64,000 nt of DNA from Gemmatimonadota bacterium (lineage in GTDB: Bacteria > Gemmatimonadota > Gemmatimonadetes > Gemmatimonadales > GWC2-71-9). How positions within the stretch are numbered: the first letter of the stretch is position 1; every line of letters starts with the position of its first letter. This document shows positions 4,186 through 62,609 of the stretch, in pieces. The stretch covers positions 2,510-66,509 of the forward strand of contig QHVC01000044.1 of the NCBI GenBank assembly GCA_003222205.1. The letters run 5' to 3'. The position numbers were made by a program, and so were the translations under genes. The notes below the pieces were generated by a model. The model had not been told where the DNA came from. It searched no databases and was given only the letters and a program-made list of their open reading frames with translations.

Positions 4186-4306
4186 CAACGCGATAGCCTC
4201 GATGGCGAATGTTTACGACGTGTGGTTGTGCTGTGCTGCTGCGTGCCAGCGTGCGGGCGCCGCAATGTATCTCCGCCCGGGAACCCCGCACAAGGGCGCG
4301 GTCACA

Positions 4307-4777
4307 TCATTCGGGCCGCGCGAGGAAGTGGTGTTTCATCCGGACCACGTCGACGAACGCGTCGACGGCGTCCAGATCGCCGAAGCTGAGCCAGCACCAC
4401 CGCAGGCCTTCGGCGTGCACGCCGTCCCGCACCGCCTGCTTGATGACCCGGGGCAGCCCGTTCGCCAGCACCAGCTCCTGCTGCTCGGCTTCCGTGAGCA
4501 CGAACGTGCCGCTGGCTCCCGACTCCATGGGATGCAGGAACCCGAGCTTGCGGCCACCGACCTCGTACATCCACACCCACTTCCACGTGGTACCGAGGTA
4601 CACGACCTGCTCGGTGACGTGCTTCAGCGCCCGGAGCCCCTCGCGGGCCCGTTTGAAGCGGCCCGCCGCCCGCGACGCTAGGTCGCGCAACGGGGCGTCG
4701 ACCTTGGGCCGCTCCCGCGGGTTCAGATAGAGGTTCGTGGCCCAATACTCGGCCGGTGGCTTACTGGTCATGGGCAT
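4307..4777 (-). CDS. Hypothetical protein (156 aa), family not recognised
   Basis: ATG-initiated ORF with non-repetitive, globular-looking sequence (…VVYLGTTWKWVWMYEVGGRKLGFLHPMESGASGTFVLTEAEQQELV…). Third positions are G/C-rich, unlike the overlapping Arg/Ala-rich alternative frames. Confidence 0.55.
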   Translation of the reverse strand: MPMTSKPPAEYWATNLYLNPRERPKVDAPLRDLASRAAGRFKRAREGLRALKHVTEQVVYLGTTWKWVWMYEVGGRKLGFLHPMESGASGTFVLTEAEQQELVLANGLPRVIKQAVRDGVHAEGLRWCWLSFGDLDAVDAFVDVVRMKHHFLARPE

Positions 4778-5021: not shown

Positions 5022-8000
5022 CTAATGTACGACGCGACCTGCCGCTCGCTCCAGCACGGTCCAGCGGCGCCGCAGTCCGGTCAGGGTGCGTTGCAGCGCC
5101 GCGACGCCGGCCACCGCCTGTGACGTGGGCGCGGCGTCCGTCTCCTCGACGACGTCGTACAGGCCGGCGAGCTGCCCGGCCAGCCGCGCCAGTCCCGGCT
5201 GCGCAGGCCGCCCTGGGGCCGGCTGACCGCGGGCGCCGCCGTTCTCCAAGGAGTCCGCACGGCTGTCGAGCGCCAGGAGGGAGTCCGCCCGCGGCCCGGC
5301 GCCCGCCTGATCCCGTTGATCCTTGAGACGCGCGCGCAGCGCCCGCACCTGGGCGAGCAGCGTCGAGTCCTCGCGCATCGCGTTGGCGAGCTGAGTCGCG
5401 AGGGTGTACTGCTGGACGAGACCCGCCGGGGGCGTCGTCACGCGCGGGTCCATCCGCACCGACAGCGTTTCCGCGTGGATGCGGGCGTCGACCGTGAGGC
5501 GCACGGTGTAGCGCCCGGGGACGACGATCGGGCCTCGCGGCTCGCGCGGAGTGTCGCGATACACGGCCGCGATCGGATAGCCGTGCTGCGTGGCGGCCGG
5601 CGGCGGCCCGCGTAGGTCCCACACGAACCGGTGCATCCCCGCCGCCGCCGAGAGCGGCTGGGGCGGGCGGATCCACCACGGCGGAATGTTGGCCGTCGAG
5701 TCCGGCGGCTCGGGGACGTCGTCGCTGGCGAAGCGCCGCACCACGCGGCCGGCGGCATCTCGCACTTCGAGCGCGATCGGCCCGGTGGGCGCGGTGCCGA
5801 GGAAGTAATAGAGGATCGCGCCGTCGGGCGGATTGTGCGCGGTGGGCTCGTCGGGCGGGAGCGGCGTATCGGTGTTCTTGTTCCAGCGCACGCGGTAAGC
5901 GACGCCGGGGCGGAACAGGACGACGTCAGCCGTTGCCGGTCGGCCAGCCAGCTGCCGCAGCGGAGACATGTCGTCCAGGATCCAGAACCCGCGCCCGTGC
6001 GTGGCGATCACGAGATCGTTGCCGTGGACGACCACGTCGCGGACCGATGAGGCCGGCAGGTTGAGGCGCAGCGCCTGCCAGTGATCGCCGTCGTCGAACG
6101 AGACGTACACGCTGCGTTCGGAGCCCGCGAACAGGAGTCCCCGGCGCACCGGGTCCTCGCGCACGACGTTCACGACCTCGTTCGACGGTATTCCCTCAAC
6201 GATTTCTCTCCACGTCTTTCCCCCGTCTTTGGTGCGGTAGATGTGGGGATGCACGTCGTCGAGCCGGAAGCGGTTGACGGCCGCGTACGCCTCGAGCGTA
6301 TCGACGTGCGAGGCCTCCATCAGCGACACCTTGCTCCACGGCGTCAGCGCGTCCGGAGTGACGTTCTTCCAGGTGCGCCCGCCGGTGTGCGTCACCCAGA
6401 TCAAGCCGTCGTCGGTCCCGGCCCACAGCAGGTTCCCTCGCCGGAACGACGGCGCGATCGTGTACACCACGCCGCGGTGCTGCCCGTGCTCGGGGTCGAG
6501 GCTCGTGAAGGCGCCGAGGTTCGCCGGCACGTCATAGCTGGGACGCGTCAGGTCGGGGCTGATCACCTGCCAGTGGCGGCCACCGTCCAACGTCTTGAAG
6601 ACGACGTTGCCCGCGAAGTACAGCACGTGCGGGTCGACCGGCGAGAACAGCACGGGCATCGTGCGGACGAAGCGATACTGCCCGGAGCGCACGGGGTCCG
6701 GGGCCACGTCCTGGACGTCGCCGGTGTTCCAGTCGAAGCGTGTGAGCTTGCCGCCGTAGACCAGGTTGGGGTGCAGGGGATCCGGCGCGACATACCCGTA
6801 TTCCTCTGCGCCGACGGGGTGCCACTCGCGGTCGGTGACCTGTCCGTCGTTGCCGCGGCTCGCGACGCCCGCCGAGCCGGACTCTTGTTGCCCCCCATAA
6901 ACCCAGTAGGGGAAGCGGTTGTCGGTCGCAACGTGATAGAACTGCGCAGTGGGCTGATTGTACCAGGAGCTCCACGACTCGCCGCCGTTGACAGTGACGA
7001 TCGCACCCTGATCGCTCGCGATCAGAATGACGCGGGAATCCCCCGGATCGATCCACACGCGGTGGTAGTCGTCGCCGCCGGGGGCGCCACGGAATGCCTG
7101 AAACGTCTGGCCTCCGTCCGTCGACTTCCACGTCACCACGTTGGCAACGTAGAGGACGTCCGGATTCCGGGGATCGACTCTCACCTCGTTGAAATCCCCG
7201 TCGCGCCCCCACAGGCGTGGGTCGGCGTTGACGCGGCGCCACGTCTCGCCGGCATCGTCGGAGCGGTACAGACCGCCGCTACGCGTCGCGCCTACGACGG
7301 CGTAGATGCGCTTGCCGTCGCTCGGCGCGACCCCCAAGCCGATCCGGCCCACGCCATCCTGGGCCGACGGCAGGCCGGTGCCGAGCGGCCGCCACGTCGT
7401 GCCGCCGTCGGAGGACTTGTAGAGGCCGTTGTTGGTCGACAGCGTCCACGAGCTGCCGATCTCCCACGGCGCTTGCCGCGCCGCCCACAGCACCGCGTAG
7501 ACGGTGTTGGGGTCGACCGGGTCGAAGGCCAGATCCATGCCGCCGGTGTTTTCGTCCTTGGCAAGCACCTGCAGCCACGTCGCGCCGCCGTCGGTGGAGC
7601 GGTAGATACCGCGCTCGGGGTTCGGACCGTACGGATGCCCGAGGACCGCCACGAACACGCGGTTGGGATCCTTGGGGTCGACGAGGATCGCGGGGATCTG
7701 CTGGCCCTCGCGCAGTCCCATGTTCCGCCAGGTGGCGCCGCCATCGGTGGACTTGTAGACGCCGTCGCCGACCGAGAGGTCGGGCCGCTGCAGCCCTTCC
7801 CCGCTGCCGACGTAGATCACGTTCGGGTCGGACGGGGCGACGGCCAGGGCGCCGATCGAGCCGGTGGACTGGTCGTCGAAGATCGGCGTCCACACGCGGC
7901 CGTAGTCGGTCGAGCGCCACACGCCGCCGTTGTTGACCCCGATGTAGAACAGGCCGGGATGTCCGGCGACACCGACGGCGGCCACCGTGCGCCCACCGCG

Positions 8001-14728: not shown

Positions 14729-14764
14729 GTCCGACCGTCCGACAGTCCGGCGGCTCATCCGACC
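14729..14764. repeat. Tandem octamer array GTCCGACN (3 units + partial) filling the heparinase/trmJ-like intergenic gap
   Basis: Read directly: gtccgacc gtccgaca gtccggcg gctca tccgacc. It lies between the trmJ-like start (14726) and the heparinase stop (14755-57). Confidence 0.9.
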
Positions 14765-17514
14765 AGCTCCAAGATCCCGAAACGCTCCGCCGCCTGCCGA
14801 TCCCCCTGCAACCACACCCACCCATCTCCGCCGCTCCAGACCAGCTGCCCCGCCCGCCGCTCCCGCCCGGGGAGCATCTCGTTGACGATCAGATCGAACC
14901 CGATCCGGCCCCCGAAATGGGCGCGGAACGGCCCGGGCCACGCGATCGCGACGGTGAGGTGGTAGCCGGTCTCCGTGCGCCGCCACCCGCCCCGCACGCC
15001 GCTGGGGTCCCCGGGCGACTCCCCCGCGCCGCGCGCGCGCACGCGGCCGCCGTCTGCCGGCTCCGGCACCACCAGGTATCCGAACGTAGCCGCGCCGTCC
15101 ACGTCGCGCAGATACAGCTGCACCCCGTCGGCGTGGATGTCGTCGGGCTCGTTGTCGAGTCGCAGCGGCGGCGCATCGCCGGCCCGGAAGCAGACGTCCG
15201 GCTTCGTCACGTCGACCGCGACGTACAGCGCCTCGTCATCCCAGCCGGCGTAGGCGAGCGCCGATAGCTGCGCTGGTCCCACATATGGCTCTTCGGCGCG
15301 CCGGTACTGGTCCTCGGCGTCGAGCCGCAGCGGCTCGGACAGGTCGAAGCCCTCGAGCGTGCCGTCGAGCGCCGGCGGATGCGCCACGCGGTACGCGGCG
15401 CCGGTGGGTGGCCGCGCCGGGTCGATCTCGAGAATCGGTTTGAACGGGGGCTCGCTCTCGACCGGTCCAGCCAGCTGCACCGTCCCGGCCGGCGTCTGGA
15501 CTCGCCAGCTGGTCCCGTCATCGTGATGGCGCTCGACGCCCTTCGCGGTCGTGATCTCGACCGCACCGCCAGCGACCGTCATGCCATGCACTGCGGTCTC
15601 GCCCGTCGTCGGCTCGAGCACGGCCACCAGCCGCGCGTTGCGCCCGCGCACGCGCAGCAGGTAAAACGTCGCCTGGCTCCCGCTGCCCGGGACGCCCGGC
15701 CCCTCGGCGCGGAGCAGCTCGGCCGCGGAGCCGAGATGCAGCGTCAACCGCGCGCCGGCCGCCGCGTGCTCGATCACGATGGGCACCGCGTCCCTCCCCT
15801 CGGGGACGAAGCGCTCCACGCGTGAAACGAACTCGTCCGCGAGCTCGCCAGGCTCCCACCTCCCCGGCAAGGTCACATCCCCACGTCCCGCCAGGTGGTA
15901 GGGGAGCTCGAGCAGGCGCTCCTCGCCGCCCGTCAGCTCGATCACATCAACGAGATACGCCGGCCCGGAGACGACGGCGCGGTTGAGCGGTCCCCATCGC
16001 CCCCGGACCCAGGCCCAGTCTCCCCCCTCCGGCGCGTCGAAGGCTTCACAGACGGCGTCGCTCATGGGCTGAGACTCGCCGCCCAAGCGCGGCGCATTGT
16101 GGGAGAGTGTGGACCGATACCAGAACAAGTCGCGGGAAACGTACGAGCCGGTGCCGGGATCGGGCAGCCAGTGGACGCCGTCCGCATGGAGCGTGAGGTG
16201 GAGCCGGTCGGGGTGGCCGTGGCCGCCGCCGTAGGGCCCGCACTCGAGGCTTGCGTAGCGGGCGCCCGAGCGCAGGATCGCGAGTCCCTGACTCGGGAGG
16301 AGCACGCTCTCCGGGCGCCACGGCTCGGCGTCGGGGAGGGCGGGAGGCATCTCGAGGAGTGACCACCACGAGAGCGAGATGCGGGATGGGGGATGGGGGA
16401 TGGGGGCGATCGGCGCATCGTGAAGATAGGACTCGAACAACTCGAGTTTGGTGGCTGGTGCCTGATACAGAGCCTGGAGCCAACCCGACACCTCCCGCGT
16501 CCCCCATCCCGCATCCCCCATCCCGAGTCTTCCCAACCCCACCTCCCACGTCTCCAGATACATCGGCTGCGCGAGCGAAATGCCGAAACGCGAGTCCTTC
16601 CGCGCCGGAAACGTCAGATCGGGGAGGGCGCTGCGCGCCGGCGCGAGCAGCGCCAGCGTGATGCGCTCCCGCAGCTGCTCGTCGGCGAAGCAGTCGAGTC
16701 CCGCGAGCGCCGCCCACCCCGCACCGGTGAGCAGGCCGCGCAGAGCGAAGAGGTGGTAGTTCTCGCCCTCGTACCACAAGCCGTCGGCCCGGAAGCCGCG
16801 CAGGTGCTGGACCAGGCCCGTCGCGTCCTCGATGGCGCGCCGCGCCAGTCCTTCGTCCTCGAACCACACGGCGATGGCGGCGAGGGCGGCGTTGTTCCAG
16901 GTCTGACGGTTGGAGAAGCCCTCGTCGAAGTCGCCGATCAGCGTGGCCGCCTCGTCGGCGACGATGTTGACGCCGCGTTCCGTCGCTTCGTCCAGCGCTC
17001 CCGCCGCCCGCAACAGCCAGGCGGCGCTCACGTAATTCAGCACCCAGAGCGACTCAAGGTAAGTCGAAAAGAACAGCCGGCTCGGGCCGAGCACGTTGTC
17101 CGCGTTGGGATACCGGAAGTAGCGCGCGGCATAGGCGGAGAGGATGTCGCGCGCGCGCGCGCCCGCCGCCGGGGCGCCGCCCAGGGCTGCGAGCGCGGCA
17201 AGGTGGGCCGCCCGCTCGGCCAGCCACAGGTGTTGGTACTTGGCCCAGGCGCGGTCGTGACGGATACCGCGAGCCACCTCGCCGCACCGTGGGCAACGGT
17301 GCGCGTCCGGGCTCCAGGGGTCAAACACGAGCGCCGTCCCATCCTTCGGGCACACGCCCCCGTCCATCGAGAGCAGCGCCTTATGCTCGGGCACGGGCGG
17401 CAGCCGCGCCAGCAGCGGAGCCGCGCGCTCCGTGAGGTGCGCGAGGAGGCGTTGCAAGTCCGGCGCCGCCGCAATTTCCAGGCGGCGCTCCGCCAGCCGC
17501 TCCGCCGTCACCAC
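14755..17514 (-). CDS. Heparinase II/III-like polysaccharide lyase family protein with C-terminal carbohydrate-binding-like domain
   Basis: 919 aa. N-terminal alginate-lyase-like helical region, then LECGPYGGGHGHPDRLHLTLHADGVHWLPDPGTGSY (Hepar_II_III pattern). The C-terminus DGTLEGFDLSEPLRL...AYAGWDDEALYVAVDV resembles CBM9/DOMON-type modules. The CDS contains the in-frame repeat element 16378-16524. Confidence 0.75.
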   Translation of the reverse strand: MVTAERLAERRLEIAAAPDLQRLLAHLTERAAPLLARLPPVPEHKALLSMDGGVCPKDGTALVFDPWSPDAHRCPRCGEVARGIRHDRAWAKYQHLWLAERAAHLAALAALGGAPAAGARARDILSAYAARYFRYPNADNVLGPSRLFFSTYLESLWVLNYVSAAWLLRAAGALDEATERGVNIVADEAATLIGDFDEGFSNRQTWNNAALAAIAVWFEDEGLARRAIEDATGLVQHLRGFRADGLWYEGENYHLFALRGLLTGAGWAALAGLDCFADEQLRERITLALLAPARSALPDLTFPARKDSRFGISLAQPMYLETWEVGLGRLGMGDAGWGTREVSGWLQALYQAPATKLELFESYLHDAPIAPIPHPPSRISLSWWSLLEMPPALPDAEPWRPESVLLPSQGLAILRSGARYASLECGPYGGGHGHPDRLHLTLHADGVHWLPDPGTGSYVSRDLFWYRSTLSHNAPRLGGESQPMSDAVCEAFDAPEGGDWAWVRGRWGPLNRAVVSGPAYLVDVIELTGGEERLLELPYHLAGRGDVTLPGRWEPGELADEFVSRVERFVPEGRDAVPIVIEHAAAGARLTLHLGSAAELLRAEGPGVPGSGSQATFYLLRVRGRNARLVAVLEPTTGETAVHGMTVAGGAVEITTAKGVERHHDDGTSWRVQTPAGTVQLAGPVESEPPFKPILEIDPARPPTGAAYRVAHPPALDGTLEGFDLSEPLRLDAEDQYRRAEEPYVGPAQLSALAYAGWDDEALYVAVDVTKPDVCFRAGDAPPLRLDNEPDDIHADGVQLYLRDVDGAATFGYLVVPEPADGGRVRARGAGESPGDPSGVRGGWRRTETGYHLTVAIAWPGPFRAHFGGRIGFDLIVNEMLPGRERRAGQLVWSGGDGWVWLQGDRQAAERFGILELVG
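16378..16524. repeat. Inverted pair of GATG(G/C)GG heptamer arrays flanking a 95-nt spacer, in frame inside the heparinase-like CDS
   Basis: Left arm 16378-16405: gatgcgg gatgggg gatgggg gatgggg. Right arm 16501-16524: c ccccatc ccgcatc ccccatc cc. The total of 147 nt equals exactly 49 codons of the minus-strand CDS. Confidence 0.9.
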
Positions 17515-20983: not shown

Positions 20984-21822
20984 TGCGACTCCGCGATCCC
21001 CGCGCCCTGTTCGGGCTCACCGTCCTGGCCGCCGTGGCGATCGCCGCCATCGCCGCGCCGGTCGTCACCGCCGGGAATCCCAACGCGCAGCGCGATATCG
21101 TCGCCACACGGTTCCTCCCCCCGCTCACCGCCGATCTCCATGGGACGTTCCACCCACTGGGGACCGACCGCTTCGGGCGCGACGTGTGGACCCGGCTCGT
21201 CTACGGGGCTCGCATCTCGCTCGGCGTCGGGCTGCTCGCCGTGGTGATCTCGGTGGCGATCGGCACCGCCGTGGGCGCGGCGGCGGGCTACCTGCGCGGC
21301 TGGCCCGCCATGGGACTGCTCGGCTTCACCGATTTCGCCCTCGCCCTCCCCCGGCTCGTGCTGCTGCTGCTGCTCGCCGCCCTGTGGCAGCCGAGCGCCG
21401 CGCTGGTGGTCGTGGTCCTGGGCCTCACGGGGTGGATGCCGATCGCGCGCTTGGTGCACGGCGAGGTCCGGGGCCTGGCGGTCCGGCCGTTCGTCGAAGG
21501 GGCGCGGGCGCTCGGCGCCAGGCGCGCCCGCGTGCTGTGGCGGCACATCCTCCCCAATGCCCTGACGCCCGTCATCGTGGCGGCGGCGCTGGGTGTCGGC
21601 AACGCGATCTTGCTCGAAGCCAGCTTGTCCTACCTGGGACTGGGGGTCCAGCCCCCCACGGCTTCGTGGGGAAGCATGATCGCTTCAGGGCGCGACACCC
21701 TGGTCAACGCTCCGTGGGTCGTCACGGCGCCCGGCCTCGCGCTGGTGCTCGTCGTGGTCGCGTGCACGCTCCTGGGCGACGCCCTGCGCGATGCGTTGGA
21801 CCCGGGGGCCGCGAAGCGTTAG
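20983..21822 (+). CDS. ABC transporter permease (DppC/OppC-like)
   Basis: Starts MRLRDPRALFGLTVL with a TGATG overlap on the upstream stop. Also GTDRFGRDVWTRLVYGARISL and the EAA-like loop ARALGARRARVLWRHILPNA. Confidence 0.85.
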   Translation: MRLRDPRALFGLTVLAAVAIAAIAAPVVTAGNPNAQRDIVATRFLPPLTADLHGTFHPLGTDRFGRDVWTRLVYGARISLGVGLLAVVISVAIGTAVGAAAGYLRGWPAMGLLGFTDFALALPRLVLLLLLAALWQPSAALVVVVLGLTGWMPIARLVHGEVRGLAVRPFVEGARALGARRARVLWRHILPNALTPVIVAAALGVGNAILLEASLSYLGLGVQPPTASWGSMIASGRDTLVNAPWVVTAPGLALVLVVVACTLLGDALRDALDPGAAKR

Positions 21823-22502
21823 CTGTCCGCCAGCCGACGCAGTGCCGACGCTTCGATTTCGTGGCCGCCCTCGAACACCTGCGTTCGGAACGGAATCGCC
21901 CGCTCCGTGAGCCGCCGCTCGATCCCGGCGAGCACCTTCGGCGTGATGTACGCGTCCTGCTTCCCGGTCACGATCGTGGTGCGCAGTCGTTTGAATCGTT
22001 GCTCCGCGGCGACGAGGTCGAGATCCGGCGGCAGCTCACCGCCCCACAGCACCAGGTCGTCGAGGCGCGCCGTCCCCAGCGCCGCCCAGCGGCTCACCGT
22101 GGCCGCGCCCTGCGAGAACCCCAGCGCCCGGATGCGGACCTCAGCCGCAGCGCCGCGAACGACCTCCGCATGGACCGCGTCCAGGTATTTCACGTAGTCC
22201 GCGATCTCGTTGAGCCGGTCCTCACGCGTCATCCACGTCGCGCCGACCGGCTGTTCGCGATGCTGCCCATCGCCCACGTAGAATCGCGACAGTCCTTCAG
22301 GCGCCACCACGACCCGCGGGCCGTCCGCAATCGGCTCGAACCGCTTGAGGAACCGCGCGGCCAGCTGCCCGTATCCGTGGCACACGAACCAGATCTCCGC
22401 CGCCTGTGAGGGATCTCCCAGGACGAAGTAGCGTGCGCTTCGCGCAACGCTGATATGTCGCTCGCTTGGTTCATTCCGCATTCCGCACTCCGCATTCCGC
22501 AT
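21819..22502 (-). CDS. Alpha/beta-hydrolase (phospholipase/carboxylesterase-type esterase)
   Basis: WFVCHGYGQ, the nucleophile elbow LGFSQGA, and C-terminal FEGGHEI. ATG 22502 overlaps the GH38 stop (TAATG). The first 11 codons are encoded by the heptamer array, and a second in-frame ATG lies at 22481. Confidence 0.7.
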   Translation of the reverse strand: MRNAECGMRNEPSERHISVARSARYFVLGDPSQAAEIWFVCHGYGQLAARFLKRFEPIADGPRVVVAPEGLSRFYVGDGQHREQPVGATWMTREDRLNEIADYVKYLDAVHAEVVRGAAAEVRIRALGFSQGAATVSRWAALGTARLDDLVLWGGELPPDLDLVAAEQRFKRLRTTIVTGKQDAYITPKVLAGIERRLTERAIPFRTQVFEGGHEIEASALRRLADS

Positions 22503-22506
22503 TACG
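22472..22506. repeat. Tandem heptamer array CATTCCG x5 (= CGGAATG on the coding strand) at the GH38/esterase junction
   Basis: cattccg cattccg cactccg cattccg cattacg. The last unit contains the GH38 stop and the esterase ATG (TAATG). Confidence 0.9.
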
Positions 22507-25129
22507 TGATCTGGATAGTGACGATCTCGTACGGCTTCGCCACGAACCGCAGGGTGCGGCCGCGGTGCTCGAGGACGAGCGCCTGGGACTCCCGCTCGTC
22601 GGCGCGCACGCGGTGCGCCGTCCGGACCCCTTCAGTGAAGCGCCACGCCCCGGCCGTTTCCCGGTCCGTCGCGTTGTAGCAGCGCAGCACGAACCCCGAG
22701 CCGTTCTGCGCCGGCTTGACCGCGGAGAGAATGAGCCCCGTCCCCTCGAGGACGATCTCCCCGCCCAGGATCGCCAGTGGCCCGGCGTCCCGCAGCCAGC
22801 GCCCGCGCACCGGAAGAAATGCGTCCTCCCAGTGCTCGGTGATCCGGTCGCCGCGCTCCAGGTCCTCCGCCGACACCGGCACGATGGCCAGCTCGATCCG
22901 CTCCGGTCCGAGGCACTGGGCGCCCGGCGTCGCCGTCGGCCAGCCGGCGTGCCCCCGGCGCGCCGGCAGATCGCCGCGGGAGAGCTGGCCCACGGCGCGG
23001 AGCAGCGTCACGAGCAGATCCCCCCCGGGCGTCCACTCGTACTCGAAGAACCCCGGAGCCAGGATCGCGAGGCCGCGCTTCCCCTCGGCCGCGGCGACGA
23101 AGCGGTGCGCCGGGGCCGTGCGCACGGGAGTCTCCAGCGGAAACTCCGCGGGATCCGCCGTCACGGGCAGCCGCGGCTCGAGCCCGAAGGCCGCTCCCGC
23201 CAGGGCGGGCACGCCGGATAACGCCGTGGGCACGCGTGCGCGCAGGCGGTGATCAGTCGCACCGTTGTCGAGATGCAGGATGCAGCGAATGATAGGGCTG
23301 TCGGCGTGCAGGACCACCACGAGCCGAGCGGCGTACTGCCGGCCCTGGGTCCAACGCGCCTCCAGGGCGGCGACCAACGGCCCCGCCGCGAGCCGCCGGA
23401 CGGCGATCGGCCCCGTGCTCCGCCGGAGGCGGTCGTGCACGGGCGGGCAGTAGGTGTAGGTGTCGCCGGCATCGCCGCCGTCCTCCAAGCGCAGCACGTC
23501 GAAGAATCGCTCGCCGCTGCGGCGATCGTGCAGCGCCAGCGCCCCCGTCGCTTCGAACGTCACCTCGACGAGCCGGTTTGTGAGCGTGCGGCCCCGAGCG
23601 TCGACCCGATCCGCATCCGACATCCGCACCGGCCCAACCACTGTGAGGGCCGCGCAGCCCAGACCGGGCACGGGGGGCGCGCGAAACGCCACGCGCACCC
23701 CGTCCACCTCGTCCTGGTCGGGATAGTGGCGGGTCGCGTCGCGACGCTCGAGCGCCTGGCGTCGGTCCAGCACCTGCACCGGAATCGGCCGCCCGTCCAA
23801 GCCCGCGAGCGCGAACGCGCGGTACCCCGGCCCCACCCTCGGCTGCCGGCCCGCCGGGGCGCCTACGACCACATCGCGACGGAAGAACTCGGCGTCGGCG
23901 ATCACCACGCCGCCCCGCGAGCGCGCCGCGGGGTTCCACAGCACCAGCGCGGGCGCTGCGTCCTCCGCGCGCTCGCGGGCCGCGTCGGGATCGTGACCCG
24001 CCAGCTCGTCGAGGGATGCCCGCGCGACTTCCTGGGCATAGCTCTCCACCGCGGCGAGCCGGATCTCCGTTTCGGCTGCCACCGTGTCGCTCACGCAGCC
24101 GCCGATCGTGTCGTGGAACTGGCAGGCGAGCAGGGTACGCCACGCGGTCTCGAGCAGCGGCCGGCGGTCCGCGCCGCCGCGGCGCCGGGCCAGTGCGGCG
24201 AGCGGCTCGGCGTGACGCTCCAGCCACAGCTCCGCGCGGGCGTGGCGGCGTTTCTGCGGCGCGCGCGTCCCGTGCACGCCCTGCAGCGTCCAGGCGTAGC
24301 GATACGACCAGCGCAGCTCTCCCGCCAGCGGCGCGGCCTTCGCGGTGTCGGCCGCGGCGAGCGAGAGGAATTCATCGAGCCGGGAGATGCGCACGGCGTA
24401 GTCCGGCTCCAGCGCCGCGAGCAGGTCGCGCAGGCGCGGCAGCTCCGGGTGCGCCGCGTGGTGATCCGCGCCGACGAACACCGCGACGTGTTTCGACGCC
24501 GCCCGCGCGACCAGCGCTTCGCGTACCGGCGGCCATGCCACGGCCAGCCGCTCCGCATCCGCCGGGAGCGCCGCGCCGATCTCGTAGCCCTCGGGGGACA
24601 GGTGCCACACGATCGCTTCCTGGCCGTCGCGCCCGCGCCAGCGGTACAGGTCGCGCTCCTGTCCCGGCTCCCCGCCGAGCCCGCGCCACAGCACGCCGGC
24701 GCGGATGCCGAATTCCCGCGCCAGGCTCGGCCAGACCGCCGGGTGCCCGAACGCATCGGGGGAGTACAGCGCTTCGCTGCGCCCGCCCCAGTGGTCGGCA
24801 TCGGCCGCACCGAGGAGCAGGTTGCGCACGAGCGACTCCCCGGACGGGATCTGCTCGTCGGCCAGAACGTACCAGGGTCCCACCTGCAGGCGGTTGGTTT
24901 TCACCAGGGCTTTGACGTCGGCCTCGCGGTCGGGCCGGGCGCGCACATAGTCCTCGAGCAGGATCGTCTGGCCGTCGAGGAGGAAGCTGCGGTAGGCGGG
25001 GTCGGCGGTGAGGCGCGTGACGAGGTCGTCCAGCGCCGGCACGAGGCGCGCGTGGAGCGCCGCCCGCGGGAGATACCACTCGCGGTCCCAGTGGGTGTGG
25101 GCGATCAGGTGAAAGACGAGGCTGCTCAT
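22502..25129 (-). CDS. Glycoside hydrolase family 38 (alpha-mannosidase-like)
   Basis: N-terminus MSSLVFHLIAHTHWDREWYLP, then YVLADEQIPSGESLVRNLL and SPDAFGHPAVWPSL: the GH38 catalytic-domain pattern. 875 aa. Confidence 0.85.
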   Translation of the reverse strand: MSSLVFHLIAHTHWDREWYLPRAALHARLVPALDDLVTRLTADPAYRSFLLDGQTILLEDYVRARPDREADVKALVKTNRLQVGPWYVLADEQIPSGESLVRNLLLGAADADHWGGRSEALYSPDAFGHPAVWPSLAREFGIRAGVLWRGLGGEPGQERDLYRWRGRDGQEAIVWHLSPEGYEIGAALPADAERLAVAWPPVREALVARAASKHVAVFVGADHHAAHPELPRLRDLLAALEPDYAVRISRLDEFLSLAAADTAKAAPLAGELRWSYRYAWTLQGVHGTRAPQKRRHARAELWLERHAEPLAALARRRGGADRRPLLETAWRTLLACQFHDTIGGCVSDTVAAETEIRLAAVESYAQEVARASLDELAGHDPDAARERAEDAAPALVLWNPAARSRGGVVIADAEFFRRDVVVGAPAGRQPRVGPGYRAFALAGLDGRPIPVQVLDRRQALERRDATRHYPDQDEVDGVRVAFRAPPVPGLGCAALTVVGPVRMSDADRVDARGRTLTNRLVEVTFEATGALALHDRRSGERFFDVLRLEDGGDAGDTYTYCPPVHDRLRRSTGPIAVRRLAAGPLVAALEARWTQGRQYAARLVVVLHADSPIIRCILHLDNGATDHRLRARVPTALSGVPALAGAAFGLEPRLPVTADPAEFPLETPVRTAPAHRFVAAAEGKRGLAILAPGFFEYEWTPGGDLLVTLLRAVGQLSRGDLPARRGHAGWPTATPGAQCLGPERIELAIVPVSAEDLERGDRITEHWEDAFLPVRGRWLRDAGPLAILGGEIVLEGTGLILSAVKPAQNGSGFVLRCYNATDRETAGAWRFTEGVRTAHRVRADERESQALVLEHRGRTLRFVAKPYEIVTIQIT

Positions 25130-25182: not shown

Positions 25183-27492
25183 ATGCGCAAATACCTCTGG
25201 CTGCTCATTCCGGCGACGCTCGCGGCGGCGGTCGCGGCACGGCGCCTCGTGCCCGGCGCACTCGCGGGGGGCGACGTGCTCCTCCCCTCAGGCTGGCGCA
25301 TCCATCCCGCCGGCCGACAAGTCCCCGTCGGCACGCTGCCGCTGAACCTCGTCGTGCTCGGTGATGGCTCGCTCGCCGTCACCAACAACGGCTACGCCGC
25401 GAACGGTCTCATGGGAATCGCCCCCGAGTCCGCGGCCGTGACCTGGCTGGTGCCGCTGCGCGCGGCGTGGCTGGGATTGGCCCGCGCGGGCGATACGCTG
25501 TGGGCGAGCGGCGGGGTGACGAGCCGGGTGTACCGTTTCGTGCCCAACGGGTCGGCGTGGACCGCCGACTCGATCGTGCTCGCCGACTCGATGACGCGGC
25601 TGTTCGTGGGCGGCCTTGCCGTCGTGCCCGGCCGTGGACTCATCGCGGCCGTCGGCAACCTCAACGACTCGGTCTACCTCATCGACGCCGCGACGCTCAG
25701 GCGCCGAGGCGCGTTCGCCATCGGGCACAGGCCGTACACCGTCGTCGCCGACTCGAGCCACCTGTACGTGAGCAACTGGGGCGACTCCACGGTGTCGATC
25801 ATCAATCTGTCCGACAGTCCGGCGGTCCGACCGTCCGACCATTTTGTGGGCCCCCATCCCTCGGCGCTGGCCCTGCACGGCCGCGAGCTGTTCGTCGCGC
25901 TCGCGGGCGCGAACGGCGTGGCGCGTGTGGATCTGGCGACGGGCCGCGTGCTGGAACAGCTCACCGTCGCCCTAGCGCCGCGCGCTCCCGTGGGCAGCGA
26001 CCCCAACGCGCTCGCCCTCGCCCCCGACGGCCGCACGCTGTACGTGGCGATGGCCGGCAACAACGCCGTCGCGGTGGTGCGGCTTTCCGCCCGCGCGATG
26101 CGCGTCGTGGGCCTCATTCCCGCCGGCTGGTATCCCACCGCTGTGGCGGTCGCCGCCGACGGCCGCACGCTCTACGTCGCCAACGGCAAGGGACAGGGCT
26201 CCGCGGCGAACGCCGACGGCAAGTACATCGGCAACCTCATCACCGGCTCAGTGTCGATCATCCCTGTGCCGGACTCGGCCGCGTTGGCCAAGTTCACTCG
26301 GCAGGTGTACGCGCTGAGCCCTTACTCGAACCCGCAGATCCGTCCGACGGTCCGACAGTCCGTCCGTCCGACTATTCGGCATGTCGTTTACGTCATCCGT
26401 GAGAACCGCACCTACGACCAGGTATTCGGCGACGTGCCGACGGGGAACGGCGATCCGGCGCTCGCGATCTTCAACGACAGCGTCACGCCCAACGCCCACG
26501 CCCTCGCCCGGCGCTGGGTGCTGTGCGACAACTTCTATGTGGACGGCGAGGTCAGCGCCGACGGCCACCAGTGGTCCACGCGTGCATTCGCGGGCGACTA
26601 CAACGAGAAGACGTGGCCGGCGATCTACGGCGGCCGCCGCAACGACAACCTCGAGGACGGCGAGGACGTGAAGAACCCGCGCGACGCGTATCTCTGGGAC
26701 GCGGCGCGGCGCAAGGGGCTGTGGGTCGTCAACTTCGGCGAGTTCACCGATGCGGATTCGAGCCACCACTACGACTCGAAGATCAGCGGGCTCAAAGGCA
26801 TTACCGCGGCCAACTACCCGGGCTGGGACCTGGCGATCGCGGACACCGTGCGCGCGCGCCTGTTCGCCGACTCGGTGGACAGCTGGGACCGGCAGGGCCG
26901 CTTCCCCGACCTCGTGGTCCTGTACCTGCCGCGCGACCACACCGAGGGCCGCCGCGGCGGCGCCCTCACGCCGCGCGCGATGGTGGCCGACAACGATCTC
27001 GCCCTGGGCCGCGTGGTCGCGCGCCTGTCCCGCTCCCCGGCGTGGCGGTCCCTCGCGCTCTTCGCCCTCGAAGACGACGCCCAGAACGGCCCCGACCACG
27101 TCGACGCGCACCGCTCGATCCTCGTCGTCGCGTCGCCATGGGCGCGCCGCGGCGCGGTGGACAGCACCTTCTACACCACCAGCTCCGTGGTGCGCACGAT
27201 CGGCCTGCTCCTCGGGATCGGTCCCCTCAGCCAGTACGATGCCGGCGCTGCGCCGCTCTGGAACGCCTTCGACTCGCGGCCGGACTCGGCACCGTTCCAT
27301 GCCCCGCCCGCACGGTGGCGGCTGGACGAGCGCAACCCGGTCGCCTTCCGTTCCCGCGTCCTCGACCGCGACCTCGCAGGCCCCGACCGCGCAGACGAAG
27401 CAACGCTGAACGCCGAGATCTGGACGAGTGTGCGCCCGCGCGAGCGCGTGCCCACGCCGCGCCGCGCCTTGGGCGTCGCCGCCGGGAACTAG
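25183..27492 (+). CDS. Secreted fusion protein: YVTN/YncE-like beta-propeller + phosphoesterase (phospholipase C / acid phosphatase family) domain
   Basis: Signal MRKYLWLLIPATLAAAVA. Propeller repeats (LYVSNWGDSTVSII, LYVAMAGNNAVAVV, LYVANGKGQG) are followed by VVYVIRENRTYDQVFGD and VSADGHQWS phosphoesterase motifs. Contains two in-frame GTCCGACN arrays. Confidence 0.8.
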   Translation: MRKYLWLLIPATLAAAVAARRLVPGALAGGDVLLPSGWRIHPAGRQVPVGTLPLNLVVLGDGSLAVTNNGYAANGLMGIAPESAAVTWLVPLRAAWLGLARAGDTLWASGGVTSRVYRFVPNGSAWTADSIVLADSMTRLFVGGLAVVPGRGLIAAVGNLNDSVYLIDAATLRRRGAFAIGHRPYTVVADSSHLYVSNWGDSTVSIINLSDSPAVRPSDHFVGPHPSALALHGRELFVALAGANGVARVDLATGRVLEQLTVALAPRAPVGSDPNALALAPDGRTLYVAMAGNNAVAVVRLSARAMRVVGLIPAGWYPTAVAVAADGRTLYVANGKGQGSAANADGKYIGNLITGSVSIIPVPDSAALAKFTRQVYALSPYSNPQIRPTVRQSVRPTIRHVVYVIRENRTYDQVFGDVPTGNGDPALAIFNDSVTPNAHALARRWVLCDNFYVDGEVSADGHQWSTRAFAGDYNEKTWPAIYGGRRNDNLEDGEDVKNPRDAYLWDAARRKGLWVVNFGEFTDADSSHHYDSKISGLKGITAANYPGWDLAIADTVRARLFADSVDSWDRQGRFPDLVVLYLPRDHTEGRRGGALTPRAMVADNDLALGRVVARLSRSPAWRSLALFALEDDAQNGPDHVDAHRSILVVASPWARRGAVDSTFYTTSSVVRTIGLLLGIGPLSQYDAGAAPLWNAFDSRPDSAPFHAPPARWRLDERNPVAFRSRVLDRDLAGPDRADEATLNAEIWTSVRPRERVPTPRRALGVAAGN
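25809..25840 (+). repeat. In-frame octamer array GTCCGACN x4 in the propeller domain
   Basis: gtccgaca gtccggcg gtccgacc gtccgacc, encoding ...LSDSPAVRPSDH... Confidence 0.9.
26342..26373 (+). repeat. In-frame octamer array GTCCGACN x4 in the propeller/phosphoesterase linker
   Basis: gtccgacg gtccgaca gtccgtcc gtccgact, encoding ...RPTVRQSVRPT... immediately before the VVYVIRENRTYD domain start. Confidence 0.9.
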
Positions 27493-61400: not shown

Positions 61401-61783
61401 TCGCAGACCCAGATGTTCTCGCCGCCGCTGCGGTCGGAGAGGAACACGATATGCCGGCCGTCGGGCGAGTACCGGGGTTGCGAGTCGAACGCGGGCCCGG
61501 AGGTGATGCGCGTCGCGGCCCCGCCAGTCACGGGCATCGTGTACAGGTCGCCCAGCAGCTCGAACACAATTGTCTTGCCGTCGGGCGAGACGTCGAGGGA
61601 GAGCCAGGTGCCTTCGTGCGCGTCGAACTCGACCTTGCGGGTCGGCGTGAGCGGCAGCGAGTCGGTCCTCGCTCGGTGCGTCGTGTCGGCGCGCGGCGCC
61701 GGCGGGTTCTGCGCCGCAGCAGTCGAGGGCGGGGCGTACGTGAGCGCGGCGGCGGCGAACGTCGCGACGAGAACGTGGCGCAT
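58436..61783 (-). CDS. Secreted TolB-like beta-propeller + amidohydrolase fusion protein (1115 aa)
   Basis: Start at MRHVLVATFAAAALTYA (Met16). WD40-like/TolB repeats (PRYSPDGRHIVFLSDRSG, PVWTPDGNYIV, PAWSPDGQWIAYV, PVWSPDGQKVVFV). C-terminal PGFIDVHAHPW and GCHGQLDG amidohydrolase motifs. Confidence 0.8.
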   Translation of the reverse strand: MRHVLVATFAAAALTYAPPSTAAAQNPPAPRADTTHRARTDSLPLTPTRKVEFDAHEGTWLSLDVSPDGKTIVFELLGDLYTMPVTGGAATRITSGPAFDSQPRYSPDGRHIVFLSDRSGGENIWVCDADGTHAKALTKGGNQLYASPVWTPDGNYIVASRTSGVLGSTYELWLYHKDGGSGTGMVKLPPPRPGVPAMNTLSAAFGRDPRYIWVSRHRGGFGYNLQYPLWQLAIYDRQTGRIFTQTDLYGSAMRPVLSPDGKWLVYATRYDAETGLRLRNLATGDERWLVYPVQHDDQESRFTRDLMPGSAFTPDSRALITAYGGKIMRVDIATGQASEIPFTAHVEQNLGPLVRFDNRADTGQVLARQIRNASTSPDGRRLVFSALDKLYVMDLPGGTPRRLTSDTVHEQVPAWSPDGQWIAYVTWTEDGGTLMKVRADGRGAPLRLTPDVAFYDVPVWSPDGQKVVFVKGPRAPRITEHFGPGYELDWVPAAGGAATRVTPYDGWGRPHFGRDPNRIFYYAGPEGLVSIRFDGTDRRAYLKVTGYTYPGPGSEPQPADEILVAPDTDRVLAQAGNNVYLVTLPELGGETPSINVSDPSSAPFPVKRLTRIGGDFIGWAPDGKSVYWSIGRSFFRYDPVVADSAEKLKAVVDSVRADSLKPDSAKGWKPDSAFRARVDSLKKQPAYDPPRVDVTIRAPRDVPRGSLVLRGARVVSMKGNEVIESGDVVVTDNRIACVGARGSCAVPAGARVMDVAGKTIIPGFIDVHAHPWPTWGIHQTQVWKYLANLAWGVTTTRDPQTATTDVLTYADQVETGELIGPRIYHTGPGVFWDENFQTLDDTRNALRRYSEFYGTKWIKEYMTGNRKQRQWVIMAAKELGLMPTTEGGLDFKMNLTEMLDGYPGHEHAYPIMPLYQDAVQLTAQSGITYTPTLLVSYGGPFSENYFYEHFDIHDNTKIRRFIPHEEIDQRAERRPWFRDNQYVFPRIAAGAAAVLRAGGNIGLGCHGQLDGLGCHWELWAMAAGGMTPHEVLQVGTSDGAHALGMEHDLGSIEPGKLADLIVLDANPLEDIHNTNTIRYVMKNGRLYEGETLNEAWPRQKPLGRMWWWGQEPNSK

Positions 61784-61811
61784 GTCGGAACTCCGCGGTG
61801 AGAAACGACGG

Positions 61812-61953
61812 CGTGAGGGGACGAACAAAACTGAAGGCGTGGAGGGACGACGTCAACCAAACACCGTGGAGGGAAATCGTGGAGGGAAGACGTTTACGGG
61901 TTCCCTCTACGTCGTCTCTCTACGTCGTCCCTCCACGTCGTTCCTCAACGTTT
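61812..61953. repeat. Long inverted tandem array of the 13-mer family (core CGTGGAGGGA / TCCCTCCACG) between the TolB-amidohydrolase and SURF1 genes
   Basis: Left arm units at 61812 (cgtgagggga), 61838, 61865 and 61878 (cgtggaggga) on a 13-nt register. Right arm: tccctctacgtcg, tctctctacgtcg, tccctccacgtcg, ttcctcaacgttt (61902-61953). The right arm covers the SURF1 stop and its last 10 codons. Confidence 0.9.
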
Positions 61954-62609
61954 CTCTTTAGTATCGCTCCCATGCCGACGAGCACGATGCCCGCGAAGGC
62001 GAACCATTGGATCGCGTACGAGAGGTGCGGGCCGTCGCTGAGCTCAGGGGCGGGCCAAGAGACCAAGTCGGACGGCCGGACCGTCGGACTGCCTGACGGT
62101 AGAGCTTGAATCACAAACGCAGCGACGCGATATGGGAGCGAGTCCCGGAGTCGTGTAGGGTCGATGTCGCCCCTGCCCCGCGGCGCCCGGAAGGCGAGAC
62201 CGGTGACGACGCCCGAGTCGCCCTCGCGGAGCGCCGTGAGGTCCACGTGCAGCGCGTCGGCGGACGGCGCCCAGCCGCGGTCCACGAACACGGCGGCGTC
62301 CCGCGAGACCTTGAGCGGCGTGAGCAGGGCGACCCCGGGGACGCCTTCGTAGGTGCGCGCGCCCCACACCCGCTCGTGCGCGTAGTCCCAGGCGCCGGTG
62401 GCAGTGACGCGGCGGTCCCGCACGGAATCGACCGGCAGCGCCGCGGCAGTGACGGCGACCGCCGGGAGCGCTCGGCGCGCGCGCACGTCCGCGTTGCGCG
62501 CCCGGCGCTGGTGCAGGCGGTTCAGCTGCCACACGCCGGCACTCACGAACAGCGCCGCGACGACGAGCGCGATGGCGGCCCCGAGCCAGTCTTTGGAGGT
62601 GAGCTTCAC
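61920..62609 (-). CDS. surf1: SURF1-family cytochrome oxidase assembly protein
   Basis: N-terminal TM + GVWQLNRLHQRR, and C-terminal HLSYAIQWFAFAG + TM. GTG start. Contains an in-frame GTCCGACN array. The last 10 codons are encoded by the 13-mer array. Confidence 0.8.
   Translation of the reverse strand: MKLTSKDWLGAAIALVVAALFVSAGVWQLNRLHQRRARNADVRARRALPAVAVTAAALPVDSVRDRRVTATGAWDYAHERVWGARTYEGVPGVALLTPLKVSRDAAVFVDRGWAPSADALHVDLTALREGDSGVVTGLAFRAPRGRGDIDPTRLRDSLPYRVAAFVIQALPSGSPTVRPSDLVSWPAPELSDGPHLSYAIQWFAFAGIVLVGMGAILKRNVEERRGGTT
62066..62089 (-). repeat. In-frame octamer array GTCCGACN x3 in SURF1
   Basis: Minus strand: gtccgacg gtccggcc gtccgact (24 nt = 8 codons), encoding ...SPTVRPSD... 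Confidence 0.9.

Follow-up and report, generated by a model that had tools for sequence, protein, structure and literature searches.

When a tandem repeat within a bacterial gene has a non-triplet unit, it is usually taken for a phase-variation switch or a recent accident. According to the summary given in PMC4679880, long simple sequence repeats (SSRs) with units of 5–11 nucleotides (nt) are over-represented in certain free-living lineages, scattered over the phylogeny, whose genomes are large and GC-rich (Mrazek, Guo and Shah, 2007), and are thought to arise by slippage-driven expansion rather than to serve a dedicated function; the in-gene repeats of that survey had units that were mostly multiples of three, and Gemmatimonadota are not among the lineages listed for it, as far as that summary goes (PMC4679880). 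The stretch of DNA analysed here, referred to as the window, consists of 64,000 nt from a Gemmatimonadota bacterium (contig QHVC01000044.1, positions 2,510 to 66,509). It contains an intact open reading frame (ORF) of 769 amino acids (aa) (the host gene; 25183..27492, + strand) with two in-frame arrays, each made up of four head-to-tail units of the octanucleotide GTCCGACN. The 8-nt repeat is found in frame, at the same positions, in two unrelated housekeeping-type genes across order-level divergence, with changes over that span in unit, register and encoded peptide alike. The two arrays are probably in-gene copies, one in a loop and the other in a linker, of an old octanucleotide SSR, (GTCCGACN)n, typical of Gemmatimonadales, the peptide being a passenger and the repeat not a switch.

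Like the 5–11-nt SSRs, the arrays described here are short-unit tandem iterations that are over-represented in a lineage; unlike the repeats of that survey, they have an 8-nt unit that is kept in frame within genes, at orthologous positions, and a unit and register that turn over. A second class, the TAACTGA heptanucleotide direct repeats, is abundant in marine Beggiatoaceae and in some cyanobacteria; these repeats are mostly intergenic, often just before a start codon or across a stop codon, and a smaller number lie in ORFs, at permissive places (PMC4679880). The octamer shares with them a restriction to a lineage, a small number of units per set, a mostly intergenic distribution that is often close to these codons, and a smaller share of permissive places within ORFs. 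TAACTGA is confined to the ends of ORFs because its forward orientation carries stop codons, whereas GTCCGACN is open in all six frames and can therefore sit anywhere in a gene. Units and lineages also differ, and the conservation at orthologous positions and the unit turnover seen here are unreported for TAACTGA (PMC4679880).

The octamer arrays form a dispersed family of 7–8-nt tandem arrays, as do the short tandemly repeated repetitive (STRR) heptamers of cyanobacteria. STRRs are described as intergenic, with an unknown function, and we know of no STRR that is an in-frame part of a conserved gene. Among the matches listed by the genome scan described below, GTCCGACA/GTCGGACT arrays of the cyanobacterium Microcoleus adjoin hairpin elements (L109, L117 and L148). 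Contingency loci, which are found in host-adapted bacteria, vary in unit number from one close strain to another, and their arrays, of 1–5-nt units, are as a rule longer. The arrays studied here resemble them in lying within coding sequences and in having a non-triplet unit, but they have only four units, and no frame-breaking variant was seen. Inverted pairs of octamer arrays fold into hairpins and some arrays lie near a palindromic element, which recalls repetitive extragenic palindromic (REP) sequences, bacterial interspersed mosaic elements and repeats resembling miniature inverted-repeat transposable elements; the arrays of the host gene, unlike these, are single, direct, unpaired and unfolded. 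What is new with respect to these closest known classes is a non-triplet unit kept in frame, a position conserved amid turnover of unit and register, and cassettes common to the arrays of unrelated genes. A literature search found nothing on these octamer or tandem repeats in Gemmatimonadota, or on the motif.

Two octamer arrays in the host gene

Both arrays lie on the + strand. Array 1 (25809..25840; units GTCCGACA GTCCGGCG GTCCGACC GTCCGACC) encodes LSDSPAVRPSDH, residues 209–220 of the host protein, and array 2 (26342..26373; units GTCCGACG GTCCGACA GTCCGTCC GTCCGACT) encodes RPTVRQSVRPT, residues 387–397; sequence and translation agree with the two in-frame, four-unit arrays and the peptides given for this gene in the initial annotation. 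Tandem Repeats Finder reports both with a period of 8, about four copies and 82–83% matches, and proposes a second, period-4 reading of array 2 at 26339–26370. The host protein is identical to PYP63967.1, from a Gemmatimonadetes metagenome-assembled genome (MAG). It has Pfam matches to Lactonase/YncE-type propellers and to Phosphoesterase (PF04185), and its N-terminal hydrophobic helix is probably a signal peptide or a membrane anchor. In an AlphaFold2 model (mean predicted local distance difference test score, pLDDT, of 65, reaching about 80–90 in the propeller part), array 1 corresponds to the loop 209–217, which follows strand 203–208, and to the start of strand 218–221. Array 2 falls within the coil 379–399, between helix 365–378, the last on the propeller side, and strand 400–407 (VVYVIREN), the first strand of the phosphoesterase domain. 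Array 1 is thus predicted to be a surface loop of the propeller and array 2 an inter-domain linker, and the loop and linker positions assigned to the arrays beforehand are those of the model.

By itself, the 7-mer GTCCGAC shows no enrichment in the window, with 16 copies where 26 are expected. Tandem arrays, counted as at least three consecutive units with no more than one mismatch per unit, number four; in 200 first-order Markov simulations, they averaged 0.01 and never exceeded 1. The period-8 self-match of 20/24 in array 1 and 19/24 in array 2 was attained by fractions of only 1.6e-4 and 7.5e-5, respectively, of synonymous recodings, in which the peptide was held fixed and codons were drawn from the window's own usage. 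The same test, applied as a control to 504 coding windows, gave p ≤ 0.01 in six, at least three of which overlap arrays 1 or 2. The codons of the arrays are rare in the window: CGA and CGT account for 3.6% and 6.2% of Arg codons, AGT for 3.8% of Ser codons and ACT for 4.5% of Thr codons. Because of these rare codons and the result of the recoding test, the periodicity is a property of the DNA and not a by-product of the peptide. The suggestion made at the outset that a DNA-level repeat lies in this coding sequence is therefore upheld, since the periodicity exceeds the synonymous-recoding null and the family also occurs outside genes.

Constant positions and changing units in orthologous genes

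The host protein has more than 5,000 homologues, the close ones being from Gemmatimonadales. Both array segments are present, at about the same length, in all 27 aligned orthologues (69–90% identity). The length of the site-1 segment is kept even in distant homologues from other lineages (35–56% identity), which have no array there, and the site-2 linker of these distant homologues is longer and unrelated. Arrays with an 8-nt period are found at both sites in most of the approximately 25 orthologues with DNA, down to about 61–70% identity, and their periodicity exceeds the recoding null (p ≤ 0.01) in 14 of 21 orthologues at site 1 and 15 of 25 at site 2. As the segments keep their length across orthologues, the arrays are not lineage-specific insertions. 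The invasion of the coding sequence proposed in the initial annotation, if taken to be recent, is at variance with this constancy in the 27 orthologues and with the persistence of arrays to about 61–70% identity.

The units themselves have not been conserved to the same extent. At site 1, they vary among lineages (GTCCGACN, GTCCGCCN, GCCCGACC and GACCGCCG): GTCCGACN is found in the window and in two orthologues (L001 and L002), GTCCG[CT]CN in three (L005, L009 and L019), three perfect copies of GCCCGACC in two (L014 and L021) and GACCGCCG in one (L195). At site 2, two orthologues (L006 and L015) have a perfect array of three GTCCGACC units plus GTCCGACG. The peptides of the sites differ between orthologues with the array units (LSDSPAVRPSDH, LSVSPPVRRSAL and LTARPPDRPTAI). 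The initial annotation had considered that orthologues with the same peptide but different codons would point to an ancestral protein feature; the opposite was found, in that the peptide changes and the 8-nt periodicity persists. Arrays have been lost at both sites in L012 and L020, and at site 2 in L014 and L021. The distribution of unit types is at odds with the gene phylogeny. The occurrence of perfect arrays in several diverged lineages implies recent homogenisation rather than slow decay. No inverted termini were found at the array flanks in the window or in the orthologue flanks read; a target duplication of one unit (8 nt) could not be told apart from the array around it.

The initial annotation had also proposed that slipped-strand mispairing might turn this gene on and off, and that comparisons of strains should be inspected for unit-number polymorphism. 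In about 27 DNA copies of the gene, taken from different assemblies, no variant differing by ±8 nt was found at either array. In the cluster at ≥90% identity, 14 of the 15 members listed have 769 aa and one is a partial record, and array 1 is invariant; neither the switch nor the polymorphism is borne out by these copies. The only array length changes seen in the host gene are −3 nt (L001, L004, L006 and L020), +3 nt (site 2 of some orthologues) and +24 nt (L190/P0004, P0010 and P0014), besides 12-nt register shifts, which separate the allele classes, and in five syntenic relatives the +24-nt change is the sole larger indel at an array. The unit number is likewise unchanged wherever orthologous loci were compared, the variation of the in-gene arrays consisting of the same −3, +3 and +24 nt changes or register shifts. 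Two truncated proteins, P0011 (633 aa) and P0014 (707 aa), were considered as possible array frameshifts and rejected, both sites being read through in frame.

Two site-2 haplotypes, QIRPTVRQSVRPTIR and RVRAVVRPTARPPVR, are found within the cluster at ≥90% identity. When the window is compared with L196 (95.2% nt identity), 36 of the 110 differences fall in 180 nt ending in or just after array 2. In this tract (window 26203–26382; gene nt 1020–1200), divergence rises from about 3–4% to 15–34%, and L196 resembles the allele of L195 and L002. It has the appearance of a tract of recombination, one of whose breakpoints is at array 2, and since L196 matches the allele of another lineage there, homologous recombination appears to move array alleles between lineages.

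The second gene with an in-frame array in the window encodes a SURF1-like protein (61920..62609, − strand). Its array (array 3; 62067..62098, − strand; ...cAGTCCGAC GGTCCGGC CGTCCGAC) encodes SGSPTVRPSD, and SURF1-like orthologues down to 55–60% identity have SDxPTVRPS in the same place. The DNA of two of these orthologues (L200 and L201; 57–59% protein identity) has three to four GTCCGACN units in the same register, with the rare codons kept. Among the residues that are unchanged, 57–86% have identical codons inside the array, versus 39–53% elsewhere. At the level of sequence, the SURF1 array thus behaves like those of the host gene.

The octamer family across genomes and a shared cassette

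A scan for (GTCCGACN)2GTCCGAC in one genome per species, covering 185,579 species, yielded at least 109 matching stretches. Gemmatimonadota account for 88 of the 109 matches listed (81%), and the other matches listed are scattered in Acidimicrobiia, Opitutales, Microcoleus, Streptomyces and others. In the 88 Gemmatimonadota stretches listed, 112 of 137 arrays are intergenic, with 3–20 units, and 11 lie confidently within genes, with 3–4 units, six of them in sense and five in antisense orientation; these calls were made with a codon-likelihood gene finder that reproduced the public gene calls of L190. In-gene arrays of unrelated proteins encode similar peptides (DSPTVRPSDP and SDRPTVRPSD, for example), and antisense arrays encode peptides of the VGRSDRRTV type. 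No octamer arrays were found in 373 kb of distant-homologue loci from other lineages. The background density in array-bearing MAGs is about 17 arrays per Mb. In other MAGs, arrays are often found immediately behind a stop codon or some tens of bases ahead of a start codon. Several intergenic arrays end 20–50 nt before a start codon and are separated from it by a TATATT-like box (L104, ~5284–5376; L126, ~2104–2220; L127, ~4255–4355; L160, ~4586–4717), and unit number could therefore alter promoter geometry there. The intergenic array of the window (14729..14759, + strand; GTCCGACC GTCCGACA GTCCGGCG and a degenerate unit) lies between two genes of the minus strand, where it covers the 27-nt spacer from the stop codon of a 919-aa gene (14755–14757), which it overruns, to the ATG (14726) of a TrmJ-like methyltransferase gene.

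Variant units occur in blocks within long arrays; in L152, three GTCCGAC units are followed by three GTCCGCC units, and in L159 and L173, GTCGGAC is followed by GTCAGAC. Such blocks are the usual signature of slippage. Many intergenic copies in other Gemmatimonadales MAGs are inverted pairs, in which three to four GTCGGACN units are separated by a short spacer from three to four GTCCGACN units (L081, 4115–4215; L082, 6665–6755; also L095, L098, L099, L122, L141, L147, L157 and L178). These pairs form hairpins of −28 to −29.5 kcal/mol (z of about −3.6), which could be terminator-like or REP-like structures. The arrays of the host gene have fold z-scores of −0.17 and −0.26, and six perfect units fold worse than shuffles (z = +2.2). 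Self-folding of the quasi-palindromic GTC-C-GAC unit was considered as a cause of expansion and is ruled out by these values (z = +2.2 and about −0.2). There were no Rfam matches at gathering thresholds in the window.

A 24-nt cassette, GCGACCGGCAGGGAGTCCTTTAGG, is identical between the phosphoesterase gene array of L190 (6601–6624) and the SURF1 array of L192 (4545–4568), which come from different assemblies; with a variant in L191 that has three mismatches (6529–6552), there are just three copies in all the sequence collected. The cassette encodes ATGRESFR, with the rare codons AGG and TTT, and lies between octamer units in equal phase in both genes. Related inserts are seen at the protein level at site 1 of P0010 and P0014, and presence/absence among orthologues is restricted to extra 24-nt cassettes. 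The cassette peptide PTATGRESFRVRPSD, searched against other protein families as a 51-aa concatenated query, gave no match at E ≤ 10. Two matches of the cassette core CAGGGAGTCCTTTAGGG in viral contigs were judged to be due to chance, as arrays were absent nearby.

Three other SURF1 orthologues have a different 24-nt in-frame insert, a fragment of a REP-like element encoding SLRSGQAR (beside the array in L193, 6519–6541). The junction seen in L193, ...CGCTCAGGGCAGGCT followed by a GTCCGAC array, recurs in L182 (~7682), apparently outside a gene. The REP-like element is palindromic, with the core CGCT[TC]CGCTC[AG]GG, and is frequently found as inverted pairs; 13 of its 45 copies lie within 100 nt of an array, though only 3.5% of the sequence is so close. 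The cassette and the REP-array junction point to some sequence exchange between arrays at different loci. A broader proposal is that octamer arrays form a genome-wide network with active sequence exchange, in which 24-nt three-unit cassettes and REP-like fragments are copied between arrays, including those of unrelated genes, by a sequence-specific process, either array-to-array conversion or a mini-insertion targeting arrays, which would add or swap 8-residue segments in frame. We regard a network of this kind as rather improbable. If real, it would be an undescribed route by which an SSR family remodels protein loops and linkers across a bacterial order, and the passage of a cassette between arrays, if confirmed, would be a new way to shuffle short peptide segments between genes.

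Explanations for the arrays, and other repeats of the window

If the arrays are indeed old copies of an SSR carried in permissive places, they would predate the divergence of orthologues that are now about 61–70% identical, and since that divergence unit and register would have turned over, with segment length and reading frame kept. The array segments would tolerate almost any sequence of the right length. Repeat-driven homogenisation would spread variant units through the misaligned pairing of neighbouring units or arrays, and selection would let through in-frame outcomes only, namely no net change or changes of 12 nt or 24 nt. A 12-nt slip would keep the frame because each unit is built from two 4-nt halves that resemble one another (GTCC/GACC). 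Array alleles would pass between related lineages by ordinary homologous recombination. Selection would act on frame and length alone, the peptide (SDxPTVRPSD and its variants) riding on the DNA repeat. The data show that the periodicity lies in the DNA, that the positions are conserved, that the units have turned over, that frame-breaking variants are absent from the copies compared and that the family is lineage-wide; the homogenising mechanism and the neutrality of the arrays are what we infer. Were this correct, the locus would provide a clean natural case of repeat-driven homogenisation under reading-frame constraint, and rare-codon, low-complexity peptides like SDxPTVRPSD in Gemmatimonadota proteins should be annotated as footprints of a DNA repeat and not as protein motifs.

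Several points weigh against this explanation. The homogenising mechanism is putative, and slippage is expected to be slow with only three to four units. Unit types and gene phylogeny disagree, so some of the apparent turnover may come from a few old allele classes that recombination has moved. The Gemmatimonadota share of 81% was calculated from the matches listed, which form a sample drawn in an unknown order. In sequence of this clade sampled without bias, arrays are rare outside the two genes: the ortholog loci, which total 124 kb with the gene, have 16 arrays, every one of them at one of the two gene sites. On a purely mutational view, the in-gene copies would not be expected to be the ones that persist. 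The conservation of the SURF1 motif and of its rare codons at 57% identity could equally reflect selection at the DNA or RNA level. Finally, the cassette common to two unrelated genes calls for an extra process, either array-to-array conversion or targeted insertion.

The alternatives, by remaining plausibility, run from a recurrent renewal of the arrays, through a selected nucleic-acid element or rare-codon pause and then a phase switch, to a selected peptide motif. In the case of renewal, a dispersed or mobile composite (an octamer array with a REP-like piece or a 24-nt cassette) would re-enter or convert the same permissive sites, the in-gene arrays being renewed from other copies in the genome and not maintained in place. 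The occurrence of an identical GCGACCGGCAGGGAGTCCTTTAGG cassette in L190 (phosphoesterase gene) and L192 (SURF1 gene) speaks for such a process, as do the REP-like fragment beside the L193 SURF1 array with its junction in L182, the proximity of 13 of the 45 REP-like copies to arrays, and unit types that are out of step with the gene phylogeny. We nevertheless consider it unlikely, given that segment length is constant, at site 1 even in array-free distant homologues, so that each insertion would need an equal deletion. In the flanks read, moreover, neither inverted termini nor target duplications are apparent at the arrays, the cassette was seen only three times, and the flanks of the ortholog loci are free of further arrays from which sequence might be donated. 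Selection acting on the nucleic acid as such, for sites of a DNA- or RNA-binding factor, or on clusters of rare codons that slow translation at the loop and the domain boundary and so aid folding or export, seems, even with the two forms taken jointly, somewhat less plausible still. It would explain the deep positional conservation in two unrelated genes with rare codons kept, the location of array 2 exactly at a domain boundary, the frequent position of arrays in other MAGs just after stops or shortly before starts, and the array at 14729–14759 that spans an intra-operon spacer. It fits poorly with a site-1 unit that is not conserved, with the array losses in L012 and L020 (both sites) and in L014 and L021 (site 2), with in-gene arrays that occur in both orientations among the matches listed (six sense, five antisense), and with arrays that have no fold of their own (z of −0.2 and −0.3, and +2.2 for six perfect units) and no Rfam match in the window.

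A phase-variable contingency locus, in which the gain or loss of a single 8-nt unit would switch a secreted enzyme on or off, might be expected from tandem arrays within a coding sequence, a non-triplet unit and a product that is probably exported. It is very improbable here: besides the lack of ±8-nt variants in about 27 DNA copies and the uniform 769 aa of all full-length cluster members listed, each array has just four units, array 1 is invariant in the cluster, a like array is present in SURF1, a housekeeping cytochrome-oxidase assembly gene, and in-gene arrays have 3–4 units versus up to 20 in intergenic arrays among the Gemmatimonadota matches listed. We give equally little credence to an ancestral peptide feature, that is, a selected motif of the (S/T)(D/V)xP(T/A)VRP type with the DNA repeat as a side effect. 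PTVRPSD-like peptides do occur not only at site 1 but also in SURF1 and, in other orthologues, at site 2; yet the peptide varies widely while the periodicity persists, the periodicity exceeds what peptide and codon usage predict, and unrelated MAG proteins have the peptide only at DNA arrays, the antisense ones giving peptides of the VGRSDRRTV type. An origin in a peptide motif is largely refuted by the recoding tests. The old, Gemmatimonadales-typical SSR with a passenger peptide remains the explanation that we favour.

The window contains other short-unit repeats. A heptamer array, (CATTCCG) x4.6 (22472–22503), fills the spacer from the stop codon of a GH38 mannosidase gene (22502..25129, minus strand) to the start of the next gene (21819..22481, minus strand). 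Related heptamer arrays are found in the equivalent place in L007 (inverted pair AATGCGG/ATTCCGC, 152–247), L008, L190 and L194, and the spacer array of L195 has one 7-nt unit fewer. The 919-aa gene (14755..17514, minus strand) has two heptamer arrays, given here in + strand letters, at 16378–16406 (GATGGGG x4.1) and 16493–16529 (TCCCCCA x3.6), which encode APIPHPPSRI and GMGDAGWGTRE and are thus also non-triplet repeats kept in frame. Comparison of this gene with the 96%-identical L196 and L197 reveals compensating indels at 16449/16464 (+1/−1, 15 nt apart) and at 16528/16537 (−1/+1, 9 nt apart), the latter at the end of a heptamer array; from the sequences compared, these paired indels are local compensated frameshifts. 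In the spacer between the SURF1-like gene and a gene for a tricorn-like protease, the 13-nt unit TCCCTCTACGTCG is tandemly repeated (x3.8) and the motif CCTCCACG recurs (61902–61951 and 61780–61900), and similar short motifs (CCTCCACG and TTGCTCGACG) are present in the same spacer in L192 and L193.

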